Part shown: in pieces, positions 20,211-41,343 of the stretch | How positions within the stretch are numbered: the first letter of the stretch is position 1 | How the letters are laid out: each line of letters begins with the position of its first letter | Assembly (NCBI GenBank): GCA_963826215.1 | Contig: CAWGWL010000037.1 | Span: 27,921-91,920 of the forward strand | Direction: 5' to 3' | DNA length: 64,000 nt | Source of the DNA: an uncultured Chloroflexia bacterium | GTDB taxonomy: Bacteria > Chloroflexota > Anaerolineae > Anaerolineales > Villigracilaceae | Made by a program: the position numbers and the translations under genes | Notes under the pieces: generated by a model | Databases searched by the model: none | What the model saw: only the letters and a program-made list of their open reading frames with translations | What the model was told of the DNA's origin: nothing

Positions 20211-21086
20211 TTAAGCCAATAAAATTTCATCCCCCATGCGGGCAATTTCGATTGCCAGTGTCGGGGTATGCTTTTTGAGGGTAGAAACCACCAAATTGGC
20301 ATGCTGCAAACCCCAAAAATCAGCCGCGCTGCGTCCCCATTCTTCGAGATGAGTCAAAATGATGCGGCTGGGTTTAAGTGCCAAGCAGAATCGGCAAAAA
20401 TGCTCCAATAATGGCGGAGGTGACAGCAACGCTGCGACTCTTCCCAGCCAAAGGTGGGCAAATAGAAAATCCACCTGACCAAAGTCTTGCAAGCGGGCAG
20501 GGTCGTATGTGCGGGTATCTCCCGGAAACAACAAGCGATTGGAGCCCGACTTAACCAAATATCCAATTGCAGGGACGCCGCGGCGTCCGTCGGGGTAGCC
20601 GGGCGCAGCTTCCCAATGAAGACCTTCGAAGGGGGTGATCTGCAATCCATTCAGATCCATGCGTTGGAGCGGTTTCGGAATTAGGATCTGATTTGAAGGT
20701 AGTCCGACCTCATCCTGAACGATAGAGACCATCGGCCCGGGAATTACCCAGTGGATGGGCAGGTGCCGCAATTGGCGTAATATACCAAAATCCAGGTGGT
20801 CTTTGTGACGGTGGGTCAGTAGAACAACCTCCAGATCTTTTAAATCACCGGCGACGTCCATCCAAGGGGCCTCGGGCAGACGGCTTTTCAACATCAGCGG
20901 ATCAATCGCCCAACGGACACCCTGAGTACGGAAAAGGTAATTGGCGGAATACATCATCCAGGCCCGGTCATCCGGGCCTGTTGATTTCCATCCATCTACC
21001 AGCTTTTTCCAGATGTCAGGGTAGCGAGCAACGATTTCATCCCGCTGCCGGTCGAGCAGGACCTGGTCATCAACCAGTGAGGTCAT
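20211..21086 (-). CDS. MBL-fold metallo-hydrolase
   Basis: LLTHRHKDHLD (HxHxDH) motif. Start taken at MTSLVDDQ (ATG 21086), giving a 17-nt overlap with the upstream kinase gene. Confidence 0.7.
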   Translation of the reverse strand: MTSLVDDQVLLDRQRDEIVARYPDIWKKLVDGWKSTGPDDRAWMMYSANYLFRTQGVRWAIDPLMLKSRLPEAPWMDVAGDLKDLEVVLLTHRHKDHLDFGILRQLRHLPIHWVIPGPMVSIVQDEVGLPSNQILIPKPLQRMDLNGLQITPFEGLHWEAAPGYPDGRRGVPAIGYLVKSGSNRLLFPGDTRTYDPARLQDFGQVDFLFAHLWLGRVAALLSPPPLLEHFCRFCLALKPSRIILTHLEEWGRSAADFWGLQHANLVVSTLKKHTPTLAIEIARMGDEILLA

Positions 21087-21972
21087 GGTTATATCTGGAT
21101 CGAATGAGGGCTTCCACATCATTTATTGGGCGGTCGAATGGCCCCAGTTTTTCCATTTTTATACTGGTAAGTGCAGCCGCCCAAATTCCTGCCTGGCGGG
21201 CAGGTTTCGACAGGCGCATGGCGACGTAAGCGCCAATACAAGTATCGCCACGCCCGCTGCGCCCGTCCAATTGCGACGGGTAGAAACCCAACTCGTAGTC
21301 CCTGCCATCAGCATGGATAAGCAAACCGTCCTTATGAGTGAGGACAATTTCTTTTGGCCCCATATCGGCATAATATTTAGCGGCTTTGAAAATGTCGGTT
21401 TCGCCAGTCAGATATTCGGCTTCGACAGCATCGCTTTTCAAGACATCCAAATAGGTCAGTGTGGTTTTCATCTCCTCCCAAGGAGTGTAAACCAAACTCT
21501 CACCCTGAAGGAAACGGACGAAGCCCTGCATATCTGCAGCCAGCAAGACCTTTTTATCGTTCAGCGCCCGGATCACATCCAGACCGACCTCACCGCGCAG
21601 GCTGGAGGAGATCACGGCTGCTTTCATCTCCAGGTTTTCCACTTCACCAACCGTGATGGCACCAGCAATGCTCTTGACTGATAAATTTCGAATATCGGGG
21701 TTGCTGGTGGGATATTCAAGGCACATCAGAGTGGATTGGGGAGTATAGGTCGGGAAGCAATCGATGCCATCCCGGGTGAACTTCTCAACCACACGGTCAT
21801 CTTCCTTTGCAAGGCGGGTGACCACAGCGACTTTAAGGCCGAGGCGCGCGGCAGCATGGGCGGCATAGTTCATCCCGCCGCCATCAACGTATTTCGTGCC
21901 AGCCGGTGTAATGATCGTATCCTTGGTGTAGTTACCAATGCAAACAACATCGTAGATTTGAGTGGAATTCAT
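21070..21972 (-). CDS. PfkB-family carbohydrate kinase
   Basis: N-terminal GG motif (VDGGGMNYAA) and C-terminal anion-hole motif DGRSGRGDTCIGAY. Confidence 0.8.
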   Translation of the reverse strand: MNSTQIYDVVCIGNYTKDTIITPAGTKYVDGGGMNYAAHAAARLGLKVAVVTRLAKEDDRVVEKFTRDGIDCFPTYTPQSTLMCLEYPTSNPDIRNLSVKSIAGAITVGEVENLEMKAAVISSSLRGEVGLDVIRALNDKKVLLAADMQGFVRFLQGESLVYTPWEEMKTTLTYLDVLKSDAVEAEYLTGETDIFKAAKYYADMGPKEIVLTHKDGLLIHADGRDYELGFYPSQLDGRSGRGDTCIGAYVAMRLSKPARQAGIWAAALTSIKMEKLGPFDRPINDVEALIRSRYNHDLTG

Positions 21973-21991
21973 AAATTCCTTTTATAAAAAA

Positions 21992-22979
21992 TCAGAGGAT
22001 AAGACGGGACAGGACCCAATAGAGTCCCGCTGCCAGAAGAGCCGTAGCGGGGATGGTCAATAACCAGGCGGTGGCAATCTCCCGGGCAACCCCCCAGCGG
22101 ACCTTTTTTACCCGTTCTGCGGCGCCCACGCCCATGATAGCCGAACTAACCACCTGGGTGGTACTCACCGGGCCGCCCACCAGGGAGGCAGTGAGGATGA
22201 CCGCCGCTGAGGCAAATTGTGCAGTAAAACCATCCACCGGACGGATTTTAAAGAACTTTCCACCCAAAGTCCGGATCAGTCTCCATCCCCCTACGGATGT
22301 GCCGATGGCTATCATCCCTGCGCAAATTATGATCACCCAAACCGGGACGGCAAACTCTGTTAAATAACCCACCGGTAACCAAAGCCAGAGTAATTATGCC
22401 CATGGTTTTCTGGGCATCGTTGGCACCGTGGCTGAGGGCGAGGGCTAGAGCGGTAAAAATCTGACCGCGTTTAAATAGCTTATTAACTCCCGGGCTGGCT
22501 TTCCAACAAAACATTATGACCAGACGGAGAACAAGGTAACCAACTGCGAACCCAATAAGAGGTGAGATGAACAGGGCAATCAATATTTTTTCAATTCCAG
22601 GCAGTTGAATAGCCTGCCAGCCCGCGTCGATGACCACCGCCCCGATAAATCCGCCAATCAGGGCATGCGAAGAACTGCTGGGGAAGCCCAGATACCAAGT
22701 TAGAAGATTCCACAAAATGGCACTGCTCAAAGCAGCAAGGAGAACCACTGTATTAATTGCCTGGGCAGCAACCACCTCATGGCCGATTGTATTGGCAACT
22801 GCAACTCCAAAGATAAACGGGCCGGAGAATTCAGCAATTGCAGTCATGGTTAGTGCGACGCGCGGAGAGAGTGCCCGAGATGAGATCATGGTGGCGACTA
22901 TATTGCTGGAATCATGAATCCCATTCAGAAAATCAAAAACCAGGGCTAAAACAATTACGGCAATAATGATTGGCGTCAT
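21992..22979 (-). pseudogene. PiT-family inorganic phosphate transporter, frame broken once as assembled
   Basis: NGIHDSSNIVAT and HGANDAQKTMGIITLAL signatures in ORF 22248..23015. The sense continues in ORF 21992..22372 (GYLTEFAVPVWVII...). Removing one G from the minus-strand GGG (plus CCC 22368-22370) restores LALVTGGYLTEF. Confidence 0.85.
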
Positions 22980-22995
22980 GCTCAGGACCCTTCGC

Positions 22996-23616
22996 CTAAG
23001 TGATCTTGACCACAATATCTGCGATCACGTTGGCAGCCTCATCCCCACGGTCAGAAGCGTTGCTCAAGTGCCGGTAGACCTCACGCAATTTCAGCATCCT
23101 GACCACATGAGAGATATCTTCCGCGCCGCTGAAGAGATCAGCCAAGGCTTCGCGGTAAACATCTTCAACCTTGTTTTCGAGAGCCTTGGCGCGCTGGGCG
23201 TGGTCACCTGCCACACCGGTGTGGTCTTCAAAGCGGTCGACTGCCATAAAAAGTTCATAAGCTGCATCCCGCAGAAGTGAAGTCATCCTTTGCATGTAGG
23301 AGGTAGGCTCCACTTTTAATACCTGCATTTCGATCAGCGTGCTATAAGCATAATCAAGCACGTCATCAATGGTGCGGGAAAGAGTAAAAATATCCTCCCG
23401 ATCAAATGGCGTGATAAAGGTCTTGTTCAACTCATAGATCAGGATGCGGCGGGCTTCATCGGCCTCTTTTTCTTTCGAAACCAGGGTGGCTGCAGCGACC
23501 GGGTCCTGGTTGGTCATATATGTTTTCAAAGCTTCCAACCCAGCTAGTGTGAGGGCAGCTTGTTCGTGAATCAATTTGATAAAAACGTTTTGGCGTCTCT
23601 TAAATAGTTTGAGCAT
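22996..23616 (-). CDS. DUF47/TIGR00153 (PhoU-like) protein paired with PiT
   Basis: ~206 aa all-helical, MLKLFKRRQNVF start with GGAGGAGG upstream. Typical genomic partner of PiT carriers. Confidence 0.7.
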   Translation of the reverse strand: MLKLFKRRQNVFIKLIHEQAALTLAGLEALKTYMTNQDPVAAATLVSKEKEADEARRILIYELNKTFITPFDREDIFTLSRTIDDVLDYAYSTLIEMQVLKVEPTSYMQRMTSLLRDAAYELFMAVDRFEDHTGVAGDHAQRAKALENKVEDVYREALADLFSGAEDISHVVRMLKLREVYRHLSNASDRGDEAANVIADIVVKIT

Positions 23617-23635
23617 GCTCGTCCTCCTCCAAATT

Positions 23636-25321
23636 TCAAACCAGTGTAACACAACCTGCTTCGACCAGATGTTTCATCCCATTCCTGATCTGAGCATAAG
23701 TGTTATGACTCATCACTTCAAGGGTGCGGAATGCTTCCCTGGGGAGGTACCCAGCAATCATGCTGAAATCCACGTCCCCCAGCCCGGGGGCATTATGATC
23801 GATAATCCCGACCACATCGTGCAGGTGAGTGCCAAAAATGCGGGATCCAAAGCGTATGAGCCACATTTCCTCAGGGAAAAAGCCAAGCCGAGCCATCACT
23901 GCGGCGTGACCGGTATCATAAATAAAACCGAGCCGATCTGGTTCAGCAAGTGCAAGCAGAGCAGACATTTCGTCCTGGGTGGGAATATCGAAATAATGAT
24001 AGCGGTTTTCCAGCCCCAGGCGAACGCCATGCTTGTCAGCATATTTCAATAATTCCTTCAAGCTCGTCTCGACAGCTTCCAGGGCCGGGCCGATAAGTTG
24101 GAGGCGTTTTTCGATCATATGACTTTTTGTATCTTCATACTCGGGAGAATCCGTGAGGCGGCTTTCAAAGAGACCACGTAATTTTTTTTCAAGTACCATG
24201 TCCAGCGATACATGGCCACAATGTACCACCACCATCTGGACGGCTAATTTCCCCGCCAACTCGATACTGCGTTTGATTGATGCAACTCCCTGCTGCCTGC
24301 ATTCCTCATCCGTGGAAGAAATCATCCAGTCGCGCCCCTTAAGGGTCTCCACGGAAATATCAGCCGGGCAAGGTTCATGAATCCCACTAATCACATATTT
24401 AGGCAGGTCAACGCTGCTTAACTTCGTGGAGTTGATCTGATGGTTTAATTCAATCTTTGAGAATCCCAACCTTTCAACAGCTAAACAGAAGTCGCTCAGA
24501 ATTGGGAAATTGTTTTTCGCCCACATGGTGGAGAGGGAGGCATTGTAAACCTGGCTATTTTCTTGCGGACGTTTCCCTTTTGCTCTCTTACGGACGGGAA
24601 AGAGTTCCAATAACTCTTTCAAGTTGTCGATCGTTTGATCCGGAATGGGATCACCGTTCTTTGGGAGACCCAGAGGGCTTTTAGGGCCATGCAGGATGAC
24701 AGTCCGGGAGAATCCCGCCTTCCGGGCAGCAGCCACATCGCGACGCGGTTGGTCGCCAATGTAGGCACAGCGTTCAGCAGGAACGCCCATTTGCACGGCT
24801 GCCATCAACAGGATGGAAGGGTCAGGTTTACGGATTCCGACAACGCACGACAAAATGACCGCCTCAAAACATCCGGCGATGCCCAGTTCTTTGAGCAGGT
24901 GCGGGACCTCAACGCTGCTGGTGGTGTTACTTACAAGCCCCATTCGATAGCCGCGACGGAAGAGGGTCAACACTGTCTCTTGTGTCTCGGGAAAGACAAT
25001 ATGCCTACCTGTCGCGTCCCGCCATAGATGATTTAATTGAAGCGCAAGCCGGGTTACCTGATCTGATGGACGGTCGGGCAGCATCCAGTGTGTCCATTGC
25101 TCGACCTCGTTCAGTTCAAGCAAGGTTTTCCCAGCCCAATCTCTATAGGCTTTGGCACGTTTCGACAACAATTGGATGAATTCTAAATCATCATCATTCC
25201 CCCCTAGGAGCGCGATCATTTCATGAATCTTCTCATGATTAACCTCGCGTTCAGGAATGGTGGTACTACGCAGAGTGCCGCCCATGTCAAATATGATGGC
25301 TTCTATGGAGTCTTTCATCAT
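23636..25321 (-). CDS. Fusion protein: N-terminal HAD-superfamily hydrolase + C-terminal xylose-isomerase-like TIM-barrel (sugar-phosphate isomerase/epimerase)
   Basis: Residues 1-~235: IIFDMGGTL, LVSNTT, RKPDP, IGDQPRRDV (HAD motifs I-IV). Residues ~270-561: a TIM-barrel pattern (...IELNHQ..., VVHCG, LGLENRYH, IYDTGHA, THLHD). Confidence 0.75.
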   Translation of the reverse strand: MMKDSIEAIIFDMGGTLRSTTIPEREVNHEKIHEMIALLGGNDDDLEFIQLLSKRAKAYRDWAGKTLLELNEVEQWTHWMLPDRPSDQVTRLALQLNHLWRDATGRHIVFPETQETVLTLFRRGYRMGLVSNTTSSVEVPHLLKELGIAGCFEAVILSCVVGIRKPDPSILLMAAVQMGVPAERCAYIGDQPRRDVAAARKAGFSRTVILHGPKSPLGLPKNGDPIPDQTIDNLKELLELFPVRKRAKGKRPQENSQVYNASLSTMWAKNNFPILSDFCLAVERLGFSKIELNHQINSTKLSSVDLPKYVISGIHEPCPADISVETLKGRDWMISSTDEECRQQGVASIKRSIELAGKLAVQMVVVHCGHVSLDMVLEKKLRGLFESRLTDSPEYEDTKSHMIEKRLQLIGPALEAVETSLKELLKYADKHGVRLGLENRYHYFDIPTQDEMSALLALAEPDRLGFIYDTGHAAVMARLGFFPEEMWLIRFGSRIFGTHLHDVVGIIDHNAPGLGDVDFSMIAGYLPREAFRTLEVMSHNTYAQIRNGMKHLVEAGCVTLV

Positions 25322-25325
25322 CCTT

Positions 25326-26786
25326 CTATCCCTGTTCCATTGAGCCTGACCTGGATAGAAGAGGTATTTTCAGCAAGTCGGAAAAATTTTTGATACAAAA
25401 ATCAGCAGTAACACCATCCTCGTAGTTAAAGGCAACGGTATTGATACCCACTGCTTTTGCCCCATCCAACTCGGATGATTTATGCCCGACAAATATTGCC
25501 TGATCGGCAGTTACGCCTAATTGGTGTAAAGCCACCTGGTAAATCTTCGGGTTTGGTTTGCGGATGCCCAGTTCACTGGATGAAATAACTGAATCCCACA
25601 CATCTCCGAAGCCGCCGCGTTCGAACCAATTCAACTTTACATGAACCGGCAGGGCAGTATCCGTTATGATACCCAACAAATATCCTTCAGCTTTCAAGGA
25701 ACAGAGTGTCTCGGGGACACCATCGAAAAATTTCACATCATTGGCATCCTCATCCAGAATTTCTTTACCGCGGGCAATATCATTCGGGCGGGTAATCCCA
25801 TGGAACCGGAGAATGGTTTTCTGGTAAAGATCATAGTCAATCAGCCCTTGATAGGCCTTATCACGCAGGGCAGTTTGCTTGTCAATTGGAAATTCTTTAT
25901 AGGCGAGCCCAATCTCATTAAGAAATTCCACAAATTTGCTGGAATCATGGTGCCGGTAGTAGAGGATATCCCCAGCGTCAAAAAGAAGAGCACGGATCTG
26001 GTTTTGAGAGTCTTTCGCTGCACTGAAAACTGTTGATGTGTTCATTTCAGTATGCAGGATTTCCAGAATTTCTGTCATATCGTTAATGACAGCATCCGGG
26101 GTGGCACCTTCATCCACTTCTCCATGGGCGTAATCGTGGCGTATCTGCACCGCCAGACGAAATCCAGCCCGTTTGGCTCCAAGGACATCGCGCATGATGC
26201 GGTCCCCGATATATACACATTGACTGGCAGGGACATTGGCCAACCGGGCCGCAAAGTGGAAGATGGCCGGGTCGGGTTTCCTGCGGCCATATTCGCTGGA
26301 TAAAACAATTGGATCAAAATAATGACGGATGCCGTAAAGTTCAAGGTTGGCGGGGACTTGTCCACGGCTATTGACATTGCTGATCAAACCGATCTTTAAC
26401 CCCATTTGATGAATGGCCTCCAGTACTGCAGGAACCTCCGGGCGCATAGCCCGCTGGAACCAGTGGGTTTCGATGAAAACCATCAAATCTTCAGCAATTG
26501 AGGCAAGTTTCACCCGGTCCAAAGGGCAGTCTGGAAAAATATATTCATTCAAAACTCTAGCGGGAGGCAATTCCTCCATGGTTTGCAGGCTCACCTGGTG
26601 GTACGCATCCAGACCGGTGGAAATGATCTCATATAATTGCCTGTCAGTTAAATCCAAGGAAATCCCGGCTTCTACAAGTCGCTGCCGAATACCTTCGGTC
26701 TCCTGGAGGCGTAATTCAGGAGTCCATCCATAGGTTTCGATCGTCCCCCCCATATCGAAGAAAACAGCCCGGATCGACATACCCAT
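25326..26786 (-). CDS. Tandem double-HAD-domain protein
   Basis: Domain 1: FFDMGGTI, ISNVN, RRKPDP, IGDRIMRDV. Domain 2: LFDAGDIL, IITDT, RKPNP, VGHKSSELDG. Confidence 0.8.
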   Translation of the reverse strand: MGMSIRAVFFDMGGTIETYGWTPELRLQETEGIRQRLVEAGISLDLTDRQLYEIISTGLDAYHQVSLQTMEELPPARVLNEYIFPDCPLDRVKLASIAEDLMVFIETHWFQRAMRPEVPAVLEAIHQMGLKIGLISNVNSRGQVPANLELYGIRHYFDPIVLSSEYGRRKPDPAIFHFAARLANVPASQCVYIGDRIMRDVLGAKRAGFRLAVQIRHDYAHGEVDEGATPDAVINDMTEILEILHTEMNTSTVFSAAKDSQNQIRALLFDAGDILYYRHHDSSKFVEFLNEIGLAYKEFPIDKQTALRDKAYQGLIDYDLYQKTILRFHGITRPNDIARGKEILDEDANDVKFFDGVPETLCSLKAEGYLLGIITDTALPVHVKLNWFERGGFGDVWDSVISSSELGIRKPNPKIYQVALHQLGVTADQAIFVGHKSSELDGAKAVGINTVAFNYEDGVTADFCIKNFSDLLKIPLLSRSGSMEQG

Positions 26787-26903: not shown

Positions 26904-26937
26904 CTTCCTGGGACACGAACACTTGTGTCCCAGGAAG
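26904..26937 (-). other. Perfect 13-bp stem-loop just downstream of the binding-protein gene (intercistronic RNA hairpin)
   Basis: CTTCCTGGGACAC (26904-26916) and GTGTCCCAGGAAG (26925-26937), 8-nt loop, no T-tract on either side. Confidence 0.5.
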
Positions 26938-26978: not shown

Positions 26979-28265
26979 CTACTTTTTGGGAGCTGTAAGC
27001 AGGCTGGCCGCCCAGAAGTCGCGCACGATACTGACGTTATTCCAGTCGAAAATGGGATCCATCTCCCAGACCTGTGGCAACAATTCAGCCAGAGGAATGT
27101 TGTTTTCATTGACGGGAAGACCTTCAGCCGCAGGCCAGGTGCCAATCTCGTTCCAGGGTTGCAAACCTGTTTCCGAGAGTATAAAGCGGATAAAGAGTTT
27201 GGCTGCATTGGGGTGCGGAGCTTTGTTGGCGATGCCCAGGAAGCTGGTCTTGAAGATGCCCATGACCGGGTCCAGGTTAAAACAGGGCGACATGTTCAGT
27301 TCGCCATCCATGGTGGCTTCGAGGGATGAGTAACCTGTCCAACCAAACCCAGGCTCCTCACCTGCGGGAAGCTCAAGCCCGGCAAAGGCCGCGTCCACCA
27401 TATCGCCGTCGTCGAGAACCACAACACCGTTATAGGCCAATTTCTTGAGCCACAGAGAGCCAGCATCTTCCGGCTTTATGCCACTGGCATCCGCCACAGC
27501 AAGTTCGTCAGTGGTCCAGTCCTTGCCGTAAAGTGTCTGATAAGCAACAGCCATCTCGTCGCCATTTTGAACAAATGTGGCTATCTTGGCCATCGTGCTG
27601 ACATCAGACATCGGATCTTCCATGAAGAATTTGGCATAATATTTGGGTTCAACGATCTGCCAGATATTGGTGACCGGACAGCCATTCGGGTAGAACTTGT
27701 TGTTGTACCCGATCACGTCGGTGGAGTGACGCGCAATGGCGAACGGAAAATCCGCAGTCAGTTCCGGGATACTCACATCCCGGGGGACGAACCACCACAT
27801 CCATTCATTGGGAACGAATTTCCCGAACAGGATGTGCCCATCGCTGTTGAACCAGACATCCCCGATGACGTTACCGCTTTCCTGTTCCGCCTGCATCTTG
27901 GTGTCGATGCCATCGGTGTCAGCAGCGTCAAATTCGATGTCCGGATACAGGGCGTACCATGAATCAGGCAAATCTTCAACTCCGCCTGAGTTGGCATACA
28001 CCGTAACCTTGCCTTCCAGTTTTGCAGCCGCCTCGATCGCCGCCCAGTCATCGGTGGCGGGCTGGTATGGACCAAGCCCGTTATCCTTCGCCCACTGCTC
28101 GTTGGCCGTGAGAGGTACTGCGGTATCAGCAGCGGGGGGGACCGGAGTGTCGCCCGGTTTGGTAGTGGGGGGTGGGGGAGCCACGGTCGTGGCCGGTGTG
28201 CCACCGCAGCTTACAACCATGCTGAATAAAACGATCAGAGTAATCAACTTTACGAACGTTTTCAT
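26979..28265 (-). CDS. ABC transporter periplasmic substrate-binding lipoprotein (Fbp/Afu/PotD-like family)
   Basis: MKTFVKLITLIVLFSMVVSCGG lipobox and a Pro/Thr-rich tether. GGAGG upstream of ATG 28265. ~428 aa. Confidence 0.8.
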   Translation of the reverse strand: MKTFVKLITLIVLFSMVVSCGGTPATTVAPPPPTTKPGDTPVPPAADTAVPLTANEQWAKDNGLGPYQPATDDWAAIEAAAKLEGKVTVYANSGGVEDLPDSWYALYPDIEFDAADTDGIDTKMQAEQESGNVIGDVWFNSDGHILFGKFVPNEWMWWFVPRDVSIPELTADFPFAIARHSTDVIGYNNKFYPNGCPVTNIWQIVEPKYYAKFFMEDPMSDVSTMAKIATFVQNGDEMAVAYQTLYGKDWTTDELAVADASGIKPEDAGSLWLKKLAYNGVVVLDDGDMVDAAFAGLELPAGEEPGFGWTGYSSLEATMDGELNMSPCFNLDPVMGIFKTSFLGIANKAPHPNAAKLFIRFILSETGLQPWNEIGTWPAAEGLPVNENNIPLAELLPQVWEMDPIFDWNNVSIVRDFWAASLLTAPKK

Positions 28266-32268: not shown

Positions 32269-32349
32269 CGAATGACCTCATCCTCAAACCGCAACAGAAA
32301 AGATTGACTTTCATTATTCATTAATTTGAAATTCAACTTTCATTTGGAT

Positions 32350-32378
32350 ATAATACAACAATACTATAAGAATTGCAA
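32350..32378 (-). promoter_or_regulatory. Candidate sigma-70-type promoter for the rpiR-ABC-HAD operon
   Basis: Minus strand TTGCAA (32373-32378), 17 nt, TATTAT (32350-32355). Embedded in a ~37-nt element repeated at 41439-41480. Confidence 0.35.
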
Positions 32379-32409
32379 GTGTTCTTTCATAAGAGGTGTC
32401 ATTTGTCAT

Positions 32410-33669: not shown

Positions 33670-33676
33670 CTGGTTT

Positions 33677-34468: not shown

Positions 34469-35679
34469 TTCTTGTATTCGCCCCGGTTGATTATTTCAAC
34501 AATTTTTTGAGTCACCCAGAGAGCTGCTCCCGTGGTGTCAACAACAATATCGCACACTTGCATCAAAGGACGATAACAATCAACGGCTCTTAAAAATTGG
34601 GTCTGGAAGAACCTGTTCCGAAAATAAGCGGGGTCGTATTTCTTGCGGTAATCAATATCGCGTTTCCATTTTCTTTTAAGCCGAATGGGGTCATCTGTCA
34701 GATAAACTGCTTTGATCCCAATCATGCTGGAGAGTTCTTCAATTTGAAACGGAAAATTGCCTTCCATAAAAATGATATCAGCGGGTTCGATCTCAAGGGG
34801 GACACGACCGGCTTTCAAATTGCCATCCAGGTCATGGCTGGAGGTGGCATTTACAAAATCATATCTTGGGATGGTGATCTTCCTCCCCTGGAGGATTATT
34901 TCCAAGCTTTGCATGAGCAATCCAAAATGGGTCAATTCTTTCCCCATCGATTTATTTTCACGAGAAGCCCGGTCAAGGAGGAAATTGTCAATCTCAATGG
35001 TCGAAAACTTTCTTCCTTCCCTGGTAAAAAGTTTATACAGGCGTTCCGTAATCTCCGTTTTCCCAGCCGCTGTTGGTCCTGCAAGGGTGATGAGTATCGG
35101 GGTGCCACGAACATCAATTAGCGTCTTGATACAATCAACAAACGCTTGATCTATCTCGGAATTTGCTTCTTTGAAATCCTTGTAACCAATTTCCTGATAA
35201 TTCTCAAATTTCCGCTGCCTTTGCTCAAATCTTTTATAAGGTTTGCCACCAAAATGAGCCAATACATCTTCTGTAAAGTAGACCGTCCTGGGTAGAAAAT
35301 AGAATCCTCGAACATCGAAATAGAAGTGGGTCATCACCCATTCTTTGGAGTATTCTCCGTTTACAAGTCCTTTGAAAAGCATGCGTGTCAGGTGAACAAT
35401 ATTTTCATCCAACACGATCCTGCTGCCACTCACGGGTTTGAGCTGGATGCCAGTATAGAAATCACGACTCCCGATCAAACGGATGATTTCCTCTTTTTTT
35501 TGCAGTTCCACTGAGTCCCAACCAGCACCTGGGGTTATGTTGTCGAGGGCGTAACAAAATTCATACAACTCCAGAACTTCAACACCCACATTTACATGCT
35601 TCATTATCTCAAATAGAAATCCAGGAAACAAATCTGGGGTACAAGACGTGCCAGACATTTCCATCCTTTCAGCTTTCAC
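34465..35679 (-). CDS. PRK/uridine-kinase-family P-loop kinase with ~190-aa N-terminal domain of unknown function (paralogue 2)
   Basis: Walker A LAGPTAAGKTEI at about residue 200, followed by IEIDNF..., FMEGNFPF, LKRKWKRDIDYRKKY. Aligns end to end with 35669..36862. Confidence 0.6.
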   Translation of the reverse strand: MKAERMEMSGTSCTPDLFPGFLFEIMKHVNVGVEVLELYEFCYALDNITPGAGWDSVELQKKEEIIRLIGSRDFYTGIQLKPVSGSRIVLDENIVHLTRMLFKGLVNGEYSKEWVMTHFYFDVRGFYFLPRTVYFTEDVLAHFGGKPYKRFEQRQRKFENYQEIGYKDFKEANSEIDQAFVDCIKTLIDVRGTPILITLAGPTAAGKTEITERLYKLFTREGRKFSTIEIDNFLLDRASRENKSMGKELTHFGLLMQSLEIILQGRKITIPRYDFVNATSSHDLDGNLKAGRVPLEIEPADIIFMEGNFPFQIEELSSMIGIKAVYLTDDPIRLKRKWKRDIDYRKKYDPAYFRNRFFQTQFLRAVDCYRPLMQVCDIVVDTTGAALWVTQKIVEIINRGEYKK

Positions 35680-36862
35680 TCAGGATTTCCGAAAATTCAG
35701 GTGTCACCCACAGGGAAGCGCCTGTGGTATCCACGCAAATATCGCAAACCTCCAATTGAGGCAGATAGGCGATCTCGGCCATAATGAACTGGTCTTTGAA
35801 AAACCGATTCCGCAAATAGGATAAGTCATATTTCTTGCGGTAATCGATATCCCTTTTCCATTTGCGTTTCAGGCGTACTGGATCATCAGTCAGATAAACT
35901 ACTTTTATACCGATTAAATGGACAACTTCCTCAAATAAAAAGGGGAAATTACCTTCGATAAAAATTATATCGGCCGGTTCAATCTCGATTGGAGCGGATC
36001 CCGGTTTCAAATTACCTGCCAGGTCGTGGCTGGATGTAGCGAAAACAGTATCGTAATACGGTATGCAGATCTTTTTCCCAAGCGTGATGTCTATAAGGCT
36101 TTGCTTGAAAAGTTCAAAATGAAAGGCTTGTTTGCCTTGCGAATGAATCCCCATTGCCTCCCGGTAATCCCGATCAGTAAAGAAATTATCCAGTTCGATG
36201 GTCGCAACATCCTGACCCGCATGCCTGAATGCCACGCTCAACCTCTCAACGATTTCGGTCTTTCCCGCTGCAGTTGGTCCTGCAATGGCCAGGAGGATCG
36301 GCGTCCCGCGAAATGCGATGATTTTCTTCACGCTCTCGATGAAAAGCGCATCGATATCAGCATTCGCTTCCCTAAAATCCTTGTACCCCAAATCCTGCTT
36401 ACACTCGAAGTTGTTTTGTTTTTTTTCGAAACGTTTATACGGTTTATCACCAAAATGTGCCCGTATCATGTCGGTGAAGTAATGCGTGCGATGGAGAAAA
36501 TAAAACCCCCGGATATCAAAATAAAAAAGAGATTTTACCCAGTCCAGGTCATACTCACCAGTTACCAAGCCCACGAATAGCATTTGCGCCAACCGGATAA
36601 TTTCTCCATCCAGCACAATCCGGTCACCAATTTTCGGCTTGATCAGAATGCCATCGTAGAATTCACGACGACTGAGACGAAATTCGATTTCTTTTGCGTC
36701 ATCCAGCGTTATGGACCCCCAACCATTTTCGGGGAGCAGGTCGTTTAACCCGTAACGGAATTCGTAGAGTTCCATCTCCGAAATGCCTGGGTTTACCAGT
36801 TTCATGCTTTCAAAAAGGGCTTCTGAAAAAGCATCCGGGTCATTCAAAATCAATGTGGTCAT
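35669..36862 (-). CDS. PRK/uridine-kinase-family P-loop kinase with ~190-aa N-terminal domain of unknown function (paralogue 1)
   Basis: Walker A IAGPTAAGKTEI, IELDNF, FIEGNFPF, LKRKWKRDIDYRKKY. Start taken at MTTLILND (ATG 36862, AGGAA upstream). Confidence 0.6.
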   Translation of the reverse strand: MTTLILNDPDAFSEALFESMKLVNPGISEMELYEFRYGLNDLLPENGWGSITLDDAKEIEFRLSRREFYDGILIKPKIGDRIVLDGEIIRLAQMLFVGLVTGEYDLDWVKSLFYFDIRGFYFLHRTHYFTDMIRAHFGDKPYKRFEKKQNNFECKQDLGYKDFREANADIDALFIESVKKIIAFRGTPILLAIAGPTAAGKTEIVERLSVAFRHAGQDVATIELDNFFTDRDYREAMGIHSQGKQAFHFELFKQSLIDITLGKKICIPYYDTVFATSSHDLAGNLKPGSAPIEIEPADIIFIEGNFPFLFEEVVHLIGIKVVYLTDDPVRLKRKWKRDIDYRKKYDLSYLRNRFFKDQFIMAEIAYLPQLEVCDICVDTTGASLWVTPEFSEILSES

Positions 36863-36975
36863 GATGTAATTCCTATTTGCGAAGGTTTTGGGGGATGGAT
36901 AGTAATATGGAAAATCCATTCAAGCCCAGGATCTTCCTGCAAATCTGCATGTGAGCTCTCGAACAAAACAACTCA

Positions 36976-38187
36976 TCAGGCACTAAATTTTTCCAAGCGG
37001 TGGGCATTAGCCAGCGCAATTGGCATGATATGCTTCGCCGGCAACACACCAAGACTGCCGCGCCCGCAAGCCCGTTCTCCGAATTCGGCGATGCCGTCGG
37101 CGCGGACATATTTACCATAAACCAAAGTGGGCACCGGATGCCAACTGTGCCCTTTAAGCACTGCCGGTGTGGAGTGGTCACCACTGACAATTATCACGTC
37201 CGGTTTCAACGAGATTAATCGCGGTATAAGGCGGTCTACTTCTTCAATTATGCTTACCTTGCGGGCAAAGTCGCCATCCTCGCCAGCAATATCGGTATTT
37301 TTGACATGCAGGTAGAAGAAATCAAAATCGTTCCAATTCTTTTCCAATGTCGTAAATTCATCACTTTCCGACCCGCCGTCGACCGGAAGCACCTGCATCC
37401 CAACCAGTTTTGCGATGCCGCGATAGGTCGGATTCAACGCAATTGCAGCTGCACGTAACCCAAAAACTTCCGGAAATGGCGGAAGATCAGGATAACTATC
37501 AAATCCTCGAGTGAGAATCATATTCGCAGGTTGTTTCGGGGTGTAGTCCAACAACAGCTTGTGGGCGCGCTCCACAAATTGATTTACCAGCCGAACTGTT
37601 TTTTCCGACTCCGGATTTAGCGCACGCACCGGGTGCGGAAGGCAGCCATTTTTTAGAGGGTCAGAGCCCGTCACTGAACTACCCAGCCCGGGGCCGCGCA
37701 TGACAATCGCAAGGCGATGTTCCTTGACTGTCTCGACGAAGAATTCGATATCTTCAATTCTGGCAGCCAGTAACTTTGATAACTCCCTGCTCGTTTCGGT
37801 GGGTATTCGGCCGGCGCGTCGATCTGTCACCGCCCCAGATTCATCCACCGTACAATAGTTACCGCGTGCGGCAACATCGTTGGGTCCCAGGTCGAAATCA
37901 ACGCCGACAGCTTCCAAAACACCGCGTCCTATCCGGTACCGGAACGGGTCATACCCAAAAATACCAAGGTGACCAGGACCGCTTTCCACTGTAATTCCGG
38001 GCCCGACTGGAACTGTGAGCCCAAGAGCCGACAGTGCTGCAAGAGCATCAAGATTAGGGGTAAAGGCGGTTTCCAACTCTGTTTTACCGCCTGGTTCCAG
38101 AGGCAACCCCCCCAACCCATCCATGATAATCATGGCGATTTTTGTTCGAGCTGGAATTATCAATTCGCGGATAAATTGTAGGTCCAT
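36976..38187 (-). CDS. ApgM-type (archaeal-type) cofactor-independent phosphoglycerate-mutase family protein (alkaline-phosphatase superfamily)
   Basis: IIMDGLGGLP, TPNLDALA, ...IIVSGDHSTP, ...HSWHPVP motifs. Start taken at MDLQFIREL (ATG 38187). Confidence 0.7.
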   Translation of the reverse strand: MDLQFIRELIIPARTKIAMIIMDGLGGLPLEPGGKTELETAFTPNLDALAALSALGLTVPVGPGITVESGPGHLGIFGYDPFRYRIGRGVLEAVGVDFDLGPNDVAARGNYCTVDESGAVTDRRAGRIPTETSRELSKLLAARIEDIEFFVETVKEHRLAIVMRGPGLGSSVTGSDPLKNGCLPHPVRALNPESEKTVRLVNQFVERAHKLLLDYTPKQPANMILTRGFDSYPDLPPFPEVFGLRAAAIALNPTYRGIAKLVGMQVLPVDGGSESDEFTTLEKNWNDFDFFYLHVKNTDIAGEDGDFARKVSIIEEVDRLIPRLISLKPDVIIVSGDHSTPAVLKGHSWHPVPTLVYGKYVRADGIAEFGERACGRGSLGVLPAKHIMPIALANAHRLEKFSA

Positions 38188-38249
38188 TGAAAGACTCCCA
38201 TTCCATTCCAAAACCGGGACACATGCCAAGTGCGATGGCGGGACTACCA

Positions 38250-39836
38250 TTAGTTCGCTAAATACTGTTTTCCGATGCCCGACACCAGTGCATCAAAGGC
38301 GATGTGGATCCTGGCATAATTGCCGTCGCGGTCAAGTGCAATCCCGCGCCCGATGCCGGTGACAACCTGACCCACTCCGATCTCGTCCATCTTGTGTTCC
38401 AACATCTGCAACAAATCTGGAGCGCTGCCAGGTTCGGTGCTTCGCCCGTCGAATATGACATGCAAGAAAACCTCATTAAGACCACGTTCTTTCGCCATTT
38501 TCAAGAGCGCCAATGGGTAGTCAATCGAACCATGAGAACTTTTTTCTGTGAGCAAGCCAATCAGATGGAGGCGTTTGTTTCGCAATTTGACATCATTGAT
38601 CGTTTTGCAGAGAATCTCATTGCTAAAAAATGAACCGTCCTGCATGGCCAGGTCAAGGCGAACGTCATCCTGCAGGACGACGCGCCCGGCACCGATATTC
38701 ATATGGCCGGCTTCCGAATTCCCCGCTTTACCCGCTTTCAATCCCACTGCCTCGCCAGCAGCCTGAAGCTGGCTACAAGGGTAGCGATTAAGCAGATCAT
38801 CCCATACAGGAGTTTCGGCGAGAAATATTGGATTGGTATCATCTTGACTGCCAATGCCCCAGCCATCCAGGATGACCAGAATCACCCTTCGCTTACCACC
38901 CCAGTGGTACTCAATTACCAGGTTTTTGCCTGACATGACGGCTGGTTGAGCTATATCAAGGGCTGATAAAACCGTTGGCGTTACATCTGCCAACATCCCC
39001 TCTTTCAGACGGACGGGAGCGGATGACCGTGGATCGATCAAAAGGAAAGGAACCGGATTGGTTGTATGCGCCACGTGCGGAGTGCCATCCGGGTTGGTCA
39101 ATAATTCCAGGTTGCCATGATCGGCAGTGATAAGAACAACGTAATCTGAAGCAAGGGCAGCCTCCACCACAAGCCCCAAACGATGGTCCACCAGCGATGC
39201 GCATTGAATCTTGGCTTCCCGATTAGCCGTATGGCCAATCACATCACCATTGGCAAAGTTGGTCACTATCAGATCATATTTCTCTTCGATACCCTGCAGC
39301 ACACGCCTGGTAACCTGAGCCAGGCTCAGCTCAGGCACCTTGTCAAAAGGAATGCCCCTGGGAGAGGGGATACGCACTTGATCCTCCCCGGCGAACGGGT
39401 GGTTTTCTCCCCCATTGAAGAAGAAGGTGACATGGGAGAATTTTTCAGATTCAGCCACTCGAAGCTGGCGCAGGCCTGCCCGGGCAACCAATTCTCCCAA
39501 TGTATCATGAACCCTGGTTGGGGCGAATGCCACCGGAAGATCCTTGAACTTGTCATGATAGAGAGTCAGGATGACAAAACTCAGGTCAGAGAGATCTGGC
39601 CGTGCGAAGTGGTCGAAACCCGGTTCAGTAAAGGCTTCGGTTAACTCTATTTCGCGTTCACCGCGCCGGCAGCAGAAGATTACGGCATCGCCATTTTGTA
39701 TTCGGCCGATTGGATACCCTGGCGCACTGGTCAGCACGACCGGTTCGAGGGAATAATCCGACTGTCCGGCTGCATACAATTCCCTCACCGCACCAGCCAA
39801 TGCAACGGCACCCCGGGGAAGATGATTCTGCAACAT
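38250..39836 (-). CDS. GpmI-like cofactor-independent phosphoglycerate-mutase family protein with circularly permuted domain order
   Basis: One uninterrupted ORF. Residues ~20-315 carry C-terminal iPGM motifs (LRQLRVAESEKFSHVTFFFNGG, NFANGDVIGHT, ITADHGN, HTTNPVP). Residues ~322-530 carry N-terminal iPGM motifs (VILVILDGWGI, GNSEAGHMNIGAGR, LHLIGLL, FDGRS). GGAGG 4 nt before ATG 39836. Confidence 0.7.
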   Translation of the reverse strand: MLQNHLPRGAVALAGAVRELYAAGQSDYSLEPVVLTSAPGYPIGRIQNGDAVIFCCRRGEREIELTEAFTEPGFDHFARPDLSDLSFVILTLYHDKFKDLPVAFAPTRVHDTLGELVARAGLRQLRVAESEKFSHVTFFFNGGENHPFAGEDQVRIPSPRGIPFDKVPELSLAQVTRRVLQGIEEKYDLIVTNFANGDVIGHTANREAKIQCASLVDHRLGLVVEAALASDYVVLITADHGNLELLTNPDGTPHVAHTTNPVPFLLIDPRSSAPVRLKEGMLADVTPTVLSALDIAQPAVMSGKNLVIEYHWGGKRRVILVILDGWGIGSQDDTNPIFLAETPVWDDLLNRYPCSQLQAAGEAVGLKAGKAGNSEAGHMNIGAGRVVLQDDVRLDLAMQDGSFFSNEILCKTINDVKLRNKRLHLIGLLTEKSSHGSIDYPLALLKMAKERGLNEVFLHVIFDGRSTEPGSAPDLLQMLEHKMDEIGVGQVVTGIGRGIALDRDGNYARIHIAFDALVSGIGKQYLAN

Positions 39837-39860
39837 CTGTCCTCCAATATCCCACAACTC

Positions 39861-40607
39861 TTATGGAAATTTGGCCTGGTGGTTCCCTGGGAAAATATCC
39901 AGAAGCTGATGGAACGCGTGGATGATTATGTCAGGCCGGTTCTCATCCGTTACGGTTTCTTTTACTAGTTCTTCGGGAGAAATCATGATAATTACCATTC
40001 CGAACCCTGCAGCGCGGGTACCCGTTATGTCGCGATTAAGGTTATCGCCCACATAAACGCAACGCGCCGCTTCGACCCCAGCCCTTCGGGCTGCCTCGAG
40101 ATAAATTGCAGGGTCCGGTTTTCGTTTACCAAAAACTGAAGAAAGCAGGACGGATTTGAAATAGGGAGCAAACCCTTCCGCCTCCAACCAATCCGGGATC
40201 TCACGCGTGCCGATCAAGTTGCTGATGATGCCAAGGGTATAACCGCGCCGGTGAAGTTCAGCCACGACTTCCTTGCCGTTCTCCACCACCACCCTGCGCC
40301 CCATTGATTGGCGAAACTGATAGGTCAGTTCCTCTCCCAGTGGGGCGATTTTTTCAACAGGAAAGTCAGGTGTGAGCCAACGCGTCCACAATTCTGACTC
40401 AGGAGCTTCGGTCAAGTACTCGAAGGCCCATTTCCGGTAGCTCTTGTAACGGTCGTCGAGTTTTGTGTAGAAAGCATTTGGATCTTCGTTTGTCCCGACC
40501 AGGCGGACGATCTCCTGCCTTGCCCGGGTCATATGAGCCTGATCCTTGACCAGCATGCGCAGGGTATTGCCCAAGTCAATGAATATGGCTTCAATCATTG
40601 CGCTCAT
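39861..40607 (-). CDS. HAD-superfamily hydrolase
   Basis: IFIDLGNTL, IISNL, KRKPDP, VGDNLNRDI. Confidence 0.85.
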   Translation of the reverse strand: MSAMIEAIFIDLGNTLRMLVKDQAHMTRARQEIVRLVGTNEDPNAFYTKLDDRYKSYRKWAFEYLTEAPESELWTRWLTPDFPVEKIAPLGEELTYQFRQSMGRRVVVENGKEVVAELHRRGYTLGIISNLIGTREIPDWLEAEGFAPYFKSVLLSSVFGKRKPDPAIYLEAARRAGVEAARCVYVGDNLNRDITGTRAAGFGMVIIMISPEELVKETVTDENRPDIIIHAFHQLLDIFPGNHQAKFP

Positions 40608-40611
40608 TGCA

Positions 40612-41343
40612 TCACCTTTTAGGCGGAAAGATATCCAACAATTCTTTCATTTCACGGATGGTGTAATCGGGTTTAATTTCAACGGGGGGCGGTTCCTTGG
40701 CCTGAGTGGCCGGCTCGAAAAACAGGATAAACATCCCATATCCTGCTGCCCGGGTGCCTTCCACATCTCGTACAGGGTTGTCACCCACGTAGACACATTT
40801 TTCCGGTTTTACCCCAATCCGGCGGGCTGCTTCCCAATAGATCTCCGGATTTGGTTTTCGAATTCCTAATTTAGAGGAAAGGACGACCGTCTTGAAATAA
40901 CCAGTCAGACCGTCTGTTTCCAAATAATCCGGAATTTCGGTTTCGGTAATTGTGTTGGCAATGATCCCAAGAAGGTAGCCTCGCCGGCTTAGTTCAATTA
41001 CTGTTTCCTTCACATCCTGGCGGGGAACCCGGCGACCATCACAGTCCCGCCACAGGCGGGTCAACTTTCCAGACAGCGGGGCGATCTTATCAGCAGGAAA
41101 ATCAGGCAGCATCCAGTGCGTCCACATTTCTCTTTCGGAGGCCTCGATCAGCTTTTCTTTGGCCTGCTTCCGCAAGCTTTTATAGCGTTCCTCGAGAATA
41201 TGATGGAATTCATCAGGAGTCTCCTTTGCGCCAGTCAACTCAGCCAGTTGCTGACGGGATAAGGCCTGGAAATCCTTGTCTTCAATCACGATGCGCAACG
41301 TATTCCCAACATCCAGAAAAATTGCTTCAATATCACTTTGCAT
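40612..41343 (-). CDS. HAD-superfamily hydrolase
   Basis: IFLDVGNTL, IIANT, IRKPNP, VGDNPVRDV. Close paralogue of 39861..40607. Confidence 0.85.
   Translation of the reverse strand: MQSDIEAIFLDVGNTLRIVIEDKDFQALSRQQLAELTGAKETPDEFHHILEERYKSLRKQAKEKLIEASEREMWTHWMLPDFPADKIAPLSGKLTRLWRDCDGRRVPRQDVKETVIELSRRGYLLGIIANTITETEIPDYLETDGLTGYFKTVVLSSKLGIRKPNPEIYWEAARRIGVKPEKCVYVGDNPVRDVEGTRAAGYGMFILFFEPATQAKEPPPVEIKPDYTIREMKELLDIFPPKR

Follow-up and report, generated by a model that had tools for sequence, protein, structure and literature searches.

The locus of interest lies within a 64,000 nt stretch of DNA (henceforth, the window; contig CAWGWL010000037.1 of assembly GCA_963826215.1) from an uncultured Chloroflexia bacterium of the GTDB class Anaerolineae, family Villigracilaceae. 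Open reading frame (ORF) calling, together with Pfam and NCBIfam domain searches, places 18 co-directional, minus-strand genes within window positions 20211–41343 (henceforth, the block), reproducing the gene count and all of the domains named in an initial annotation of this DNA. The block consists of (i) unit 1, encoding two HAD-family proteins (HAD1 and HAD2), a permuted cofactor-independent phosphoglycerate mutase (iPGM; the permuted form is here called piPGM), an ApgM-type mutase, two PRK/Udk-like kinases (PRKa and PRKb), a third HAD protein (HAD3) and an MFS_3 transporter, and (ii) unit 2, encoding an RpiR regulator (HTH_6 plus SIS), a fused two-domain ATP-binding cassette (ABC) permease, an ATPase, a lipoprotein substrate-binding protein, a HAD-HAD fusion (HADHAD), a HAD-TIM-barrel fusion (HADTIM), and DUF47, PiT, PfkB and MBL proteins. 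This composition was initially described as matching no known pathway, and our literature search for the cluster likewise found no described pathway of such composition.

Unit 1 begins with HAD1 (40612–41343), a HAD-IA domain protein (Pfam HAD_2/Hydrolase) with the motif I sequence DVGNT, and its paralogue HAD2 (39861–40607; DLGNT). Next come the 528 aa piPGM (38250–39836; alignment to 1EJJ, TIGR01307) and the 403 aa, archaeal-type cofactor-independent phosphoglycerate mutase ApgM (36976–38187; NF003160, match to 2ZKT). PRKa (35669–36862) joins a ~185 aa N-terminal domain without matches to a PRK/Udk-like P-loop kinase domain. The remaining three genes are optional: PRKb (34465–35679, start uncertain, near 35664), a paralogue of PRKa; HAD3 (33677–34468), with motif I DMNGT and, in motif IV, GN in place of GD; and the EntS-like MFS_3 transporter (32410–33720, start probably near 33669).

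Unit 2 is headed by the RpiR/MurR-family regulator (31387–32268; Pfam, NCBIfam), followed by the fused permease (29522–31358; ~611 aa in relatives), the UgpC/MalK-type ATPase (28427–29509), and the binding protein (26979–28265), which is distantly Fbp/Afu-like and has no Pfam match above threshold. Then come HADHAD (25326–26786; motif I DMGGT in the N domain, DAGDI in the C domain, the latter with motif IV GH), HADTIM (23636–25321), in which a HAD domain (DMGGT) is fused to a xylose-isomerase-like TIM barrel, the DUF47 (PhoU_div) protein (22996–23616), and the PiT-family phosphate transporter (21992–22979). The unit closes with PfkB (21070–21972), a TM0415-family kinase of the "homolog No. 49" type that is predicted to be pyrophosphate (PPi)-dependent, and an MBL-fold hydrolase with an HxHxDH motif (20211–21086). 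Directly after the binding-protein gene lies a perfect 13 bp stem with an 8 nt loop and no T-run (26904–26937, minus strand); this hairpin may stabilise or attenuate the mRNA, raising expression of the binding protein relative to the downstream genes.

The genes had been described as separated by very short gaps or overlaps. With ORF-maximal starts, the successive junctions measure 4, 3, -1, 113, -11, -4 and -44 nt in unit 1, and 28, 12, 161, 192, 4, -17, -20, 19 and -53 nt in unit 2, with 141 nt between the units. The description holds for most junctions, which overlap or span at most 28 nt, and fails for the internal gaps of 113, 161 and 192 nt. Four starts were corrected: those of piPGM (39836) and ApgM (38187), in exact agreement with public gene calls, and those of DUF47 (23616) and MBL (21086), according to orthologue lengths. 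The MBL start overlaps the end of PfkB by 17 nt, and the same overlap is found in a relative. Two genes are broken: the permease gene by a 1 nt insertion near 30175 (as compared with a 94%-identical relative), and the PiT gene by an extra G in a G-run near 22372. Both are intact in relatives, and similar splits affect other genes of related long-read metagenome-assembled genomes. The two frameshifts are either assembly errors or recent pseudogenisation.

The range of the block was investigated by way of its PRK/Udk-like kinase. In a pattern-limited scan of one genome per GTDB species (185,579 species-representative genomes), the kinase is encoded in 186; 80 loci were read, including that of the isolate Levilinea saccharolytica KIBI-1. 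Kinase relatives at 70% identity or above are found in Anaerolineae/Chloroflexota metagenome bins only. A tblastn layout of ~80 Anaerolineae loci from different species revealed, in most, the recurring order HAD1-HAD2-piPGM-ApgM-PRKa-(PRKb-HAD3-MFS)-RpiR-permease-ATPase-SBP-HADHAD-HADTIM-DUF47-PiT-PfkB (SBP, substrate-binding protein); the genes are kept together, rather than scattered, in relatives. Among the 81 listed loci (two of which, L001 and L007, are the same contig), PRKa is present in 80, piPGM in 73, the permease in 67, the ATPase in 65, RpiR in 63, ApgM and SBP in 62 each, HAD1 in 59, HADHAD in 58 and HAD2 in 54. HADTIM was counted in 42; the 10 kb limit on flanks leads to under-counting of the last members of the block. 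The MFS gene is found in 41 (a second MFS type stands in its place in other loci), and PRKb in 26.

Seven loci (L014, L042, L044, L045, L052, L064 and L065) have a rearranged order, in which the ABC system stands upstream and PRKa is immediately followed by PiT-DUF47-PfkB. MBL comes next after PfkB in the canonical loci L084 and L085; the rearranged loci lack it. Even so, the ABC system, HADs, mutases, kinase, PiT, DUF47 and PfkB remain adjacent, and this persistence of linkage after rearrangement argues that the parts of the block are functionally linked. Together with the synteny and the operator common to both units (see below), it bears out the earlier suggestion that the genes form one functional unit. 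Some variant loci contain additional block genes: a PHP-domain phosphoesterase after PRKa (L025, L023, L033, L037 and L053, at ~11.2–12.0 kb), a FruK/LacC-type PfkB kinase (L033, L037 and L046), an aldo-keto reductase between ApgM and PRKa (L007, L010 and L023) and, in a single locus (L014), a sulfatase-like enzyme. The accessory PHP phosphoesterase and FruK-type kinase are also phosphoester enzymes.

The block had been called an island. Taken to mean a mobile or foreign element, the term was rejected: there is no break in composition, the 64 kb window contains no tRNA gene, and the flanks are conserved in a relative, in which the downstream flank (a 187 aa ORF and a Crp regulator) is kept. 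The Crp-family regulator gene lies at 18146–18820, and is conserved in L084. Searching with the DNA of the whole block gave no match in E. coli genomes, and in plasmids just short matches (~140 nt or less) to the ATPase gene.

Two candidate promoters had been proposed, at 41.44 and 32.35 kb. A generic scan for sigma-70 promoters and terminators was uninformative, performing no better than on shuffled sequence; footprinting by k-mer counts, covering the upstream regions of HAD1 in 55 loci and of RpiR in 62, places conserved promoters at exactly these positions. Both share one architecture, which reads, in the direction of transcription: TGAAAG-N4-CTTGCA (-35), a spacer of ~17–18 nt, (A)TGTTGTATnAT (-10), the inverted repeat CAAATG(A/T)AAG-N5-6-TT(T/A)CA(A/T)AA, ~12 nt, and TTGAAAG. 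The promoter/operator of unit 1 (P1; 41413–41480, minus strand) comprises the TGAAAG box with -35 CTTGCA (41463–41480), the -35/-10 block CTTGCA-N18-TATCAT (41439–41468) and the operator variant TTGCAAACGTAAGAAATGTTACAAAA (41413–41438). That of unit 2 (P2; 32303–32409, minus strand) comprises the TGAAAG box with -35 (32374–32389), CTTGCA-N18-TATTAT (32350–32379), the operator CAAATGAAAGTTGAATTTCAAAT (32324–32346) and a distal AATGAAAGTCAAT box (32303–32315). A regular expression for the -35/-10 region has exactly two matches in the window, both on the minus strand and both at these sites, and P1 and P2 are conserved by this measure upstream of HAD1 in 42/55 loci and upstream of RpiR in 42/62. 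A strict operator pattern, for which no match in the window is expected by chance, occurs once, before RpiR. It is present in 51/87 loci, where it lies on the operon strand before HAD1 and before RpiR; the matches on the reverse strand are re-readings of two palindromic sites.

The half-sites of P1 are altered symmetrically relative to the consensus (TGAAA..TTTCA becomes TGTAA..TTACA), which is the pattern that the site of a dimeric regulator would show. Given the near-identical promoter/operator before both units, we therefore consider that units 1 and 2 most likely form one regulon. We infer that the binder of the inverted repeat CAAATG(A/T)AAG-N5-6-TT(T/A)CA is most likely the RpiR protein, in which both the N-terminal HTH_6 (64 bits) and the C-terminal SIS domain (37 bits; both Pfam) are present. 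P2 contains one further element, ATGACAAATGACAC (32396–32409), directly after the MFS stop codon. Its variants, such as GTGACAAAAGTCAC, are palindromic; a loose regular expression finds the element upstream of RpiR in at least 16/62 loci, and never upstream of HAD1. The element could be the site of a second regulator; the Crp-family gene mentioned above is nearby.

According to the initial annotation, almost every enzyme of the block makes, moves or breaks a phosphoester. While the domain calls agree, the statement is too confident for the HADs. All six HAD domains retain the motif I nucleophile Asp, the motif II Ser/Thr and the motif III Lys. The general acid/base two residues after the nucleophile (Asp+2) is missing from all six (DVGNT, DLGNT, DMNGT, DMGGT, DAGDI and DMGGT), and is similarly missing from the orthologues (in HAD1, 62 sequences keep the motif). 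The acidic pair of motif IV (GDxxxD) is present in HAD1, HAD2, the N domain of HADHAD and HADTIM; the two remaining domains, HAD3 and the C domain of HADHAD, have the altered GN and GH. Several of the domains share a cap signature (ELWTxWxLPDxP; that is, E-x-W-T-x-W-x-L-P-D-x-P) and a GRR motif. Motif I lies within ~10–20 residues of the N-terminus in every HAD protein, and hence the proteins appear to be cytoplasmic, with no signal peptide. The nearest solved relatives are PH0459, PH1655 and HDHD3, HAD-IA proteins of the TIGR02253 and TIGR02252 type, which share the VGDNPVxD form of motif IV. They differ in being single-domain proteins of unknown function, whereas each locus of the block encodes five or six paralogous domains, which have a cap signature of their own and include fusions to a second HAD domain or to a TIM barrel. 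NCBIfam gives weak matches to YjjG-type nucleotidases. An assignment as RuBP-phosphatase-type HADs was rejected on scores of 50–115 bits against a cutoff of 330.

The first of the two mutases, piPGM, is a clean circular permutation of GpmI: residues 322–532 align with residues 3–213, and residues 24–315 with residues 220–510, of the B. stearothermophilus enzyme (1EJJ; E = 3e-114). The TIGR01307 model is matched in two stretches (498 bits, cutoff 331), and the linear order phosphatase-N, transferase, phosphatase-C is not kept. As in GpmI, the nucleophile Ser62, the Mn ligands (D12, D403, H407, D444, H445 and H462), and the substrate-binding residues H123, R153, R185, R191, R261, R264 and K336 are retained, each in 63–66 of 66 sequences. 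Unlike GpmI, piPGM has its new termini inside the transferase domain, near residue 215, and its old termini joined by ~6 residues; further, D154 of the DGRD substrate-site motif is replaced by Ser in all 65 sequences with a residue at that position (one sequence is gapped). A literature search for a permuted iPGM found no description of one. The second mutase, ApgM (family NF003160/TIGR00306), exceeds the equivalog cutoff of NF003160 (550 bits, cutoff 468), and matches the Pyrococcus iPGM 2ZKT with an E value of 5e-71. The nucleophile motif keeps its Ser/His, and the DH motif is also retained; the metal-ligand His of TDxxGH aligns with Glu.

PRKa and PRKb are 59% identical. Their ~185 aa N-terminal domain matches no Pfam family; the C-terminal domain matches PF00485 (54 and 52 bits, cutoff 22), with an invariant GPTAAGKT P-loop, D225 and R330/R333/R337, and the SSH motif is kept. 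The kinases nevertheless fall outside both of the established equivalogs, scoring 59.6 bits against a cutoff of 180 for Udk and 64 against 236 for PRK. The C-domain is closest to uridine-cytidine kinase and PRK, and the alignment has a gap at the ribose-binding FDH segment of UCK2. The family forms only ~4 full-length clusters at 50% identity among 1.84 billion representative proteins, and the two distant members that could be placed (43% and 47% identity) lie directly beside ApgM or piPGM. These features point to a tiny, lineage-restricted and new PRK/Udk-like family. Foldseek, run with a low-confidence kinase model (pLDDT 60), found Udk, PRK and PanK for the C-domain only (TM ~0.5, rmsd ~10 Å), and nothing for the N-domain.

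The PfkB protein matches T. maritima TM0415 over its full length (E = 1e-43). Five residues (K171, F221, R229, R232 and M266) define the use of PPi in TM0415-type kinases (Nagata et al. 2018, PMC5931981). Alignment to 5YSP/1VK4 reveals all five in the window protein, and they are kept in 123–127 of 127 homologues. The protein, annotated initially as a PfkB kinase, is thus predicted from its sequence to depend on PPi rather than ATP. At the positions that bind myo-inositol in TM0415 (N78, S89, L116 and I76), the window protein has L, L, S and M, the same residues as in Levilinea homolog No. 49; this acceptor signature is conserved in the 127 homologues. The identical signature, along with the conserved gene order in other loci, suggests orthology with the Levilinea enzyme. 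Homolog No. 49 used PPi and not ATP or ADP, acted ambiguously on myo-inositol, yielding three different inositol monophosphates, and did not accept inosine, adenosine or cytidine (PMC5931981). TM0415 itself adjoins an inositol catabolic cluster (PMC5931981), and the window gene is likewise near one. Differences from TM0415 include the acceptor site (N78L, S89L, L116S, I76M, T230S and S9T), and the position of the window gene after PiT/DUF47, within an operon that also encodes HADs and an ABC importer. A literature search for follow-up work on the Levilinea kinase gave nothing specific. A more distant TM0415-like PfkB (30% identity) is encoded in Prevotella sp. oral taxon 299 (8986–9840 of locus L088), near an aminotransferase, a nucleotidyltransferase and LicD; this context was uninformative, beyond hinting at a different use of such kinases, in the decoration of phospho-head-groups.

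The importer had been assigned to the Fbp/Afu type. This agrees with its composition—a fused two-domain permease, an ATPase and an extracytoplasmic binding protein, as in AfuABC—and with the binding protein itself, which has a signal peptide with a lipobox Cys, a Pro/Thr linker and weak Fbp-type similarity (E ~4e-4). AfuABC of Actinobacillus and Citrobacter imports hexose and heptose phosphates intact (PMC4546632). Like the window system, it is binding-protein-dependent and has a fused two-domain permease; it was also long mis-annotated as an Fe(III) system, and the same "iron" label is attached to relatives of the window binding protein, which JGI lists as afuA/fbpA-type, "iron(III) transport". 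The two differ in that the window binding protein is only remotely Fbp-like, has no AfuA match and is the lipoprotein of a monoderm, and in that AfuABC loci are without the ~10 processing enzymes found beside the window importer.

Homologues of the binding protein (29–30% identity) also occur in Sinorhizobium and Shinella, in operons of the form RpiR-SBP-fused permease-ATPase-histidine phosphatase. Two such operons, from S. meliloti pSymA (246957–252483; L086) and a Shinella plasmid (L087), encode the closest annotated relative of the window binding protein, and the S. meliloti operon adjoins idonate/gluconate genes. These uncharacterised rhizobial operons share the logic and gene order of unit 2: genes for RpiR, a homologous binding protein, a fused permease and an ATPase are followed by one for an intracellular phosphatase. 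They differ in having one histidine-phosphatase-family enzyme in place of six HAD domains, and no kinases, mutases or PiT. Within loci L001–L081, identity of the binding proteins to that of the window falls into three classes (~37–48%, 52–60% and 68–97%), whereas identity of the enzymes varies smoothly; it may be that the classes recognise different ligands and serve one shared pathway inside the cell. A phosphonate system was rejected, with matches to PhnU2, PhnT2 and PhpG far below their cutoffs and no C-P enzymes present. A literature search for ABC importers of inositol phosphates gave nothing specific.

Upstream of the block, and divergent from it, lies a plus-strand cluster encoding LacI, UxaE, a D-mannonate oxidoreductase, a LarA-like protein, a truncated Gnd, KdgK, an IolM/Tdh-like dehydrogenase, a TIM-barrel protein and IolG. 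Scores range from clear (UxaE, 480 bits in Pfam; mannonate oxidoreductase, 381 against a cutoff of 281; KdgK against 2AFB, E = 2e-43) to marginal or low (IolG, 354.1 against 355; IolM-like dehydrogenase, 167 against 450). The gene content suggests a Thermotoga-type route from inositol and hexuronates to 2-keto-3-deoxygluconate (KDG), of the kind that Rodionova and colleagues reportedly described in 2013. The perfect 14 bp palindrome TGCACACGTGTGCA occurs exactly twice in the window, before lacI-uxaE (41525–41538) and before the ADH-TIM-IolG genes (48992–49005), and is kept in ~35/55 related intergenic regions. It is probably the LacI operator, defining a separate inositol/hexuronate regulon. 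The earlier reading of the neighbouring cluster as inositol/sugar-acid catabolism is in line with the gene content, with the amendment that the cluster appears to be regulated on its own. Control of the block by LacI was rejected: the palindrome is found before the lacI and ADH-TIM-IolG genes only.

Several further observations concern the flanks. The Gnd ORF (46333–47367) matches model positions 1–330 of 476 and is followed, up to 47843, by 476 nt without a long ORF; it looks like another frameshift or truncation in the assembly. The IolG ORF (51048–52034) matches its model from position 56 only, and its N-terminus may have been lost to a start-codon or frameshift problem. The LarA-like (nickel-pincer) protein (44939–46333), encoded between the D-mannonate oxidoreductase and Gnd and conserved beside UxaE in many relatives, is closest to a "putative hexonate epimerase" model (160 bits, cutoff 500) and may be an uncharacterised sugar-acid epimerase. 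On the other side of the block, window positions 9905–17657 encode a TAT-exported molybdopterin oxidoreductase, a split YeeE/YedE-type sulfur transporter, a possible multihaem cytochrome and an OmpR-type two-component system, all of which appear unrelated to the block.

Our preferred interpretation, to which we assign about an even chance, is that the block is a regulon under RpiR control for the import of an anionic organophosphate, which might be a cyclitol phosphate or a phospho-sugar acid; the encoded proteins would take off its phosphate or shift it to another position, and deal with the inorganic phosphate (Pi) thus set free. RpiR, whose SIS domain is a phosphosugar-binding fold, would sense the organophosphate or a phosphorylated product. 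The unit 2 importer (lipoprotein binding protein, fused Fbp/Afu/Thi-type permease and MalK-type ATPase) would bring the anionic organophosphate into the cell intact, where the non-canonical, cytoplasmic HADs and the HAD-fused TIM-barrel isomerase/epimerase would strip or move phosphate, and the PiT/DUF47 pair would balance the resulting flux of Pi. The PPi-dependent, ribokinase-family kinase could then re-phosphorylate the carbon skeleton at a useful position, or run in reverse. From unit 1, one to three nucleoside triphosphate (NTP)-dependent PRK/Udk-like kinases would re-phosphorylate, tightly coupled to piPGM and ApgM, and by way of these two mutases phosphoglycerate, or a closely similar phospho-carboxylate, would enter lower glycolysis. 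The MFS carrier and two or three more HADs may serve as a safety valve, with HAD3 and MFS possibly forming an overflow valve. Any cyclitol set free would go on to the neighbouring inositol/hexuronate-to-KDG cluster, which has a regulation of its own. The direction of flux in this scheme, inward and towards glycolysis, is one that we infer.

With regard to the substrate, we consider a cyclitol (inositol-type) phosphate most likely, because the kinase is of the TM0415 type, inositol genes are often adjacent, and the HAD caps are rich in arginine. Second place goes to phospho-sugar acids or phosphoglycerates, because the mutases keep their carboxylate-binding arginines, and third place to ordinary hexose or pentose phosphates. 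As a kind, the block may be likened to other regulator-controlled loci for organophosphate uptake and processing, such as AfuABC or the rhizobial RpiR-ABC-phosphatase operons. Precedents for the logic of the HAD/kinase and HAD3/MFS pairs are MupP-AmgK-MurU, in cell-wall recycling, and YigL with the Set efflux pump, in E. coli, which swap the position of phosphate or relieve the cell of sugar phosphate: a HAD phosphatase frees one position, and then either a kinase attaches phosphate at another or the sugar is pumped out by a carrier. The comparison is by analogy only; the proteins have no relationship to those of the block, and their substrates differ. In several respects, components of the block lack defining features of the families that they resemble: the HADs are without Asp+2, the iPGM is permuted and has D154S, and the kinases fall below equivalog cutoffs and have an unmatched N-domain.

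A number of points weigh against this interpretation. Some concern the enzymes. If a kinase, a mutase and a phosphatase all worked on a single compound, their action would be futile unless they addressed different positions; it is not obvious what phosphoglycerate mutases would do in the breakdown of cyclitol phosphates, and three loci (L034, L036 and L051) are without both mutases within 10 kb; HADs without Asp+2 may, judging from their motifs, not be simple hydrolases; and homolog No. 49 was judged by its authors to have a true acceptor other than myo-inositol (PMC5931981). Others concern the link with inositol and the importer. The inositol cluster has its own LacI operator, absent from the block, and adjacency is limited to ~60% of loci (among 45 loci with enough upstream sequence, LacI is found in 27, UxaE in 25 and Gfo/ADH/TIM in 14). 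AfuA itself, whose sugar-coordinating motif consists of H205, D206 and E229, is absent from the matches of the binding protein in a sequence search of the PDB, and the window copies of the permease and PiT genes are frameshifted. Finally, the AlphaFold2 models of the kinase (pLDDT 60) and the binding protein (pLDDT 47) are too poor to use, their alignments being shallow (at least 70% identity).

The same gene content can be read in other ways. The block could serve phosphorus scavenging, importing any organophosphate mainly for its Pi under phosphate limitation while the kinases and mutases merely recycle carbon skeletons. The dominance of phosphatase-type domains, the embedded PiT and PhoU-like DUF47, the accessory PHP phosphoesterase and sulfatase-like enzyme, and the pairing of importer with phosphatase in the rhizobial analogues all fit this reading. 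Yet the regulator is of the RpiR/SIS and not the PhoB type, the operator is a promoter-adjoining inverted repeat rather than a Pho-box-like direct repeat, PiT is a low-affinity carrier and not a starvation-type Pst system, and one to three NTP-dependent kinases plus the PPi-dependent kinase would consume phosphoryl donors; we regard scavenging as unlikely. The missing Asp+2 residues lend themselves to two readings in which the HADs would not act as simple hydrolases. In one, the block builds a multiply phosphorylated molecule by way of its kinases and mutases (a bisphosphoglycerate-type or cyclitol polyphosphate solute or phosphate store), which the HADs remobilise and MFS_3 exports. Kinase-mutase-kinase arrangements (piPGM-PRK-ApgM-PRK in L083, L023 and L065), the predicted PPi-dependent kinase, the resemblance of the MFS carrier to EntS-like exporters, and HADs that, for want of Asp+2, would hold phosphate instead of hydrolysing it are in keeping with such biosynthesis. 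Set against these, the core of the block includes a binding-protein-dependent ABC system, which is an importer; the ~80 loci contain no synthase, cyclase or glycosyltransferase; MFS_3 is optional; and RpiR-type control is typical of catabolic loci, so that biosynthesis or storage seems distinctly unlikely. In the other, which we hold to be no less speculative, the organophosphate is used in a phosphoryl-conserving way that would be new to the literature: the Asp+2-less HADs would act as phosphotransferases or position-specific mutases and, with a piPGM of altered specificity (D154S) and the new kinase family, reshuffle an imported cyclitol or polyol (poly)phosphate, whose phosphate would finally be transferred to Pi through reversal of the TM0415-type kinase; the PPi so formed would be an energy currency, and PiT would bring in or release Pi.

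It is also conceivable that there is no single pathway, and that the neighbourhood mixes housekeeping glycolytic mutases, nucleoside-salvage-type kinases and an unrelated transporter operon; indeed, both mutases score above curated phosphoglycerate mutase cutoffs, and uridine-cytidine kinase is the closest relative of the kinase C-domain. Such a mosaic is hard to square with an operator and promoter common to both units, with linkage that survives rearrangement, and with a kinase that lies far below the Udk and PRK equivalog cutoffs and whose few clusters sit beside ApgM or piPGM. The small number of species-representative genomes that encode the kinase, in what was a pattern-limited scan, similarly argues against a universal housekeeping role. 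The mutases and kinases appear not to be simply housekeeping enzymes—they stand behind a pathway-specific operator, and the kinase family is found in this context only—and we judge the mosaic to be very doubtful. More improbable still is salvage of nucleotides from RNA breakdown, in which 2'/3'/5'-nucleoside monophosphates would be imported, dephosphorylated by HAD nucleotidases and re-phosphorylated at the 5' position by Udk-like kinases. Some details could accommodate it: the catalytic Asp, lid arginines and SSH motif of the Udk-like domain, the weak YjjG-type HAD matches, and an MBL hydrolase that could be a phosphodiesterase. However, the mutases are of the phosphoglycerate and not the phosphopentomutase type (498 and 550 bits, as compared with ~39), on which basis phosphopentomutase function was rejected; no nucleoside phosphorylase or hydrolase occurs in any locus; the segment with which UCK2 binds ribose is missing from the kinase alignment; and the Levilinea PPi kinase is inactive on the three nucleosides listed above.

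Returning to the preferred reading of the block as an organophosphate uptake and processing regulon, its significance lies partly in the enzymes, which bring four oddities together in one place: a permuted iPGM, a new PRK/Udk-like family, a set of HADs without Asp+2 and a predicted PPi-dependent kinase. The operon context (binding protein, RpiR sensor and HADs) supplies candidates and partners in the search for homolog No. 49's true acceptor (Nagata et al. 2018). Few of the Anaerolineae, a class abundant in soils, sediments and digesters, have been cultured; for them, the block provides a well-defined, widely conserved and tractable regulon, and Levilinea saccharolytica, in which it is present, is culturable. 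Should the regulon act on an inositol phosphate or some other organophosphate of soils, it would have a bearing on the turnover of organic phosphorus.

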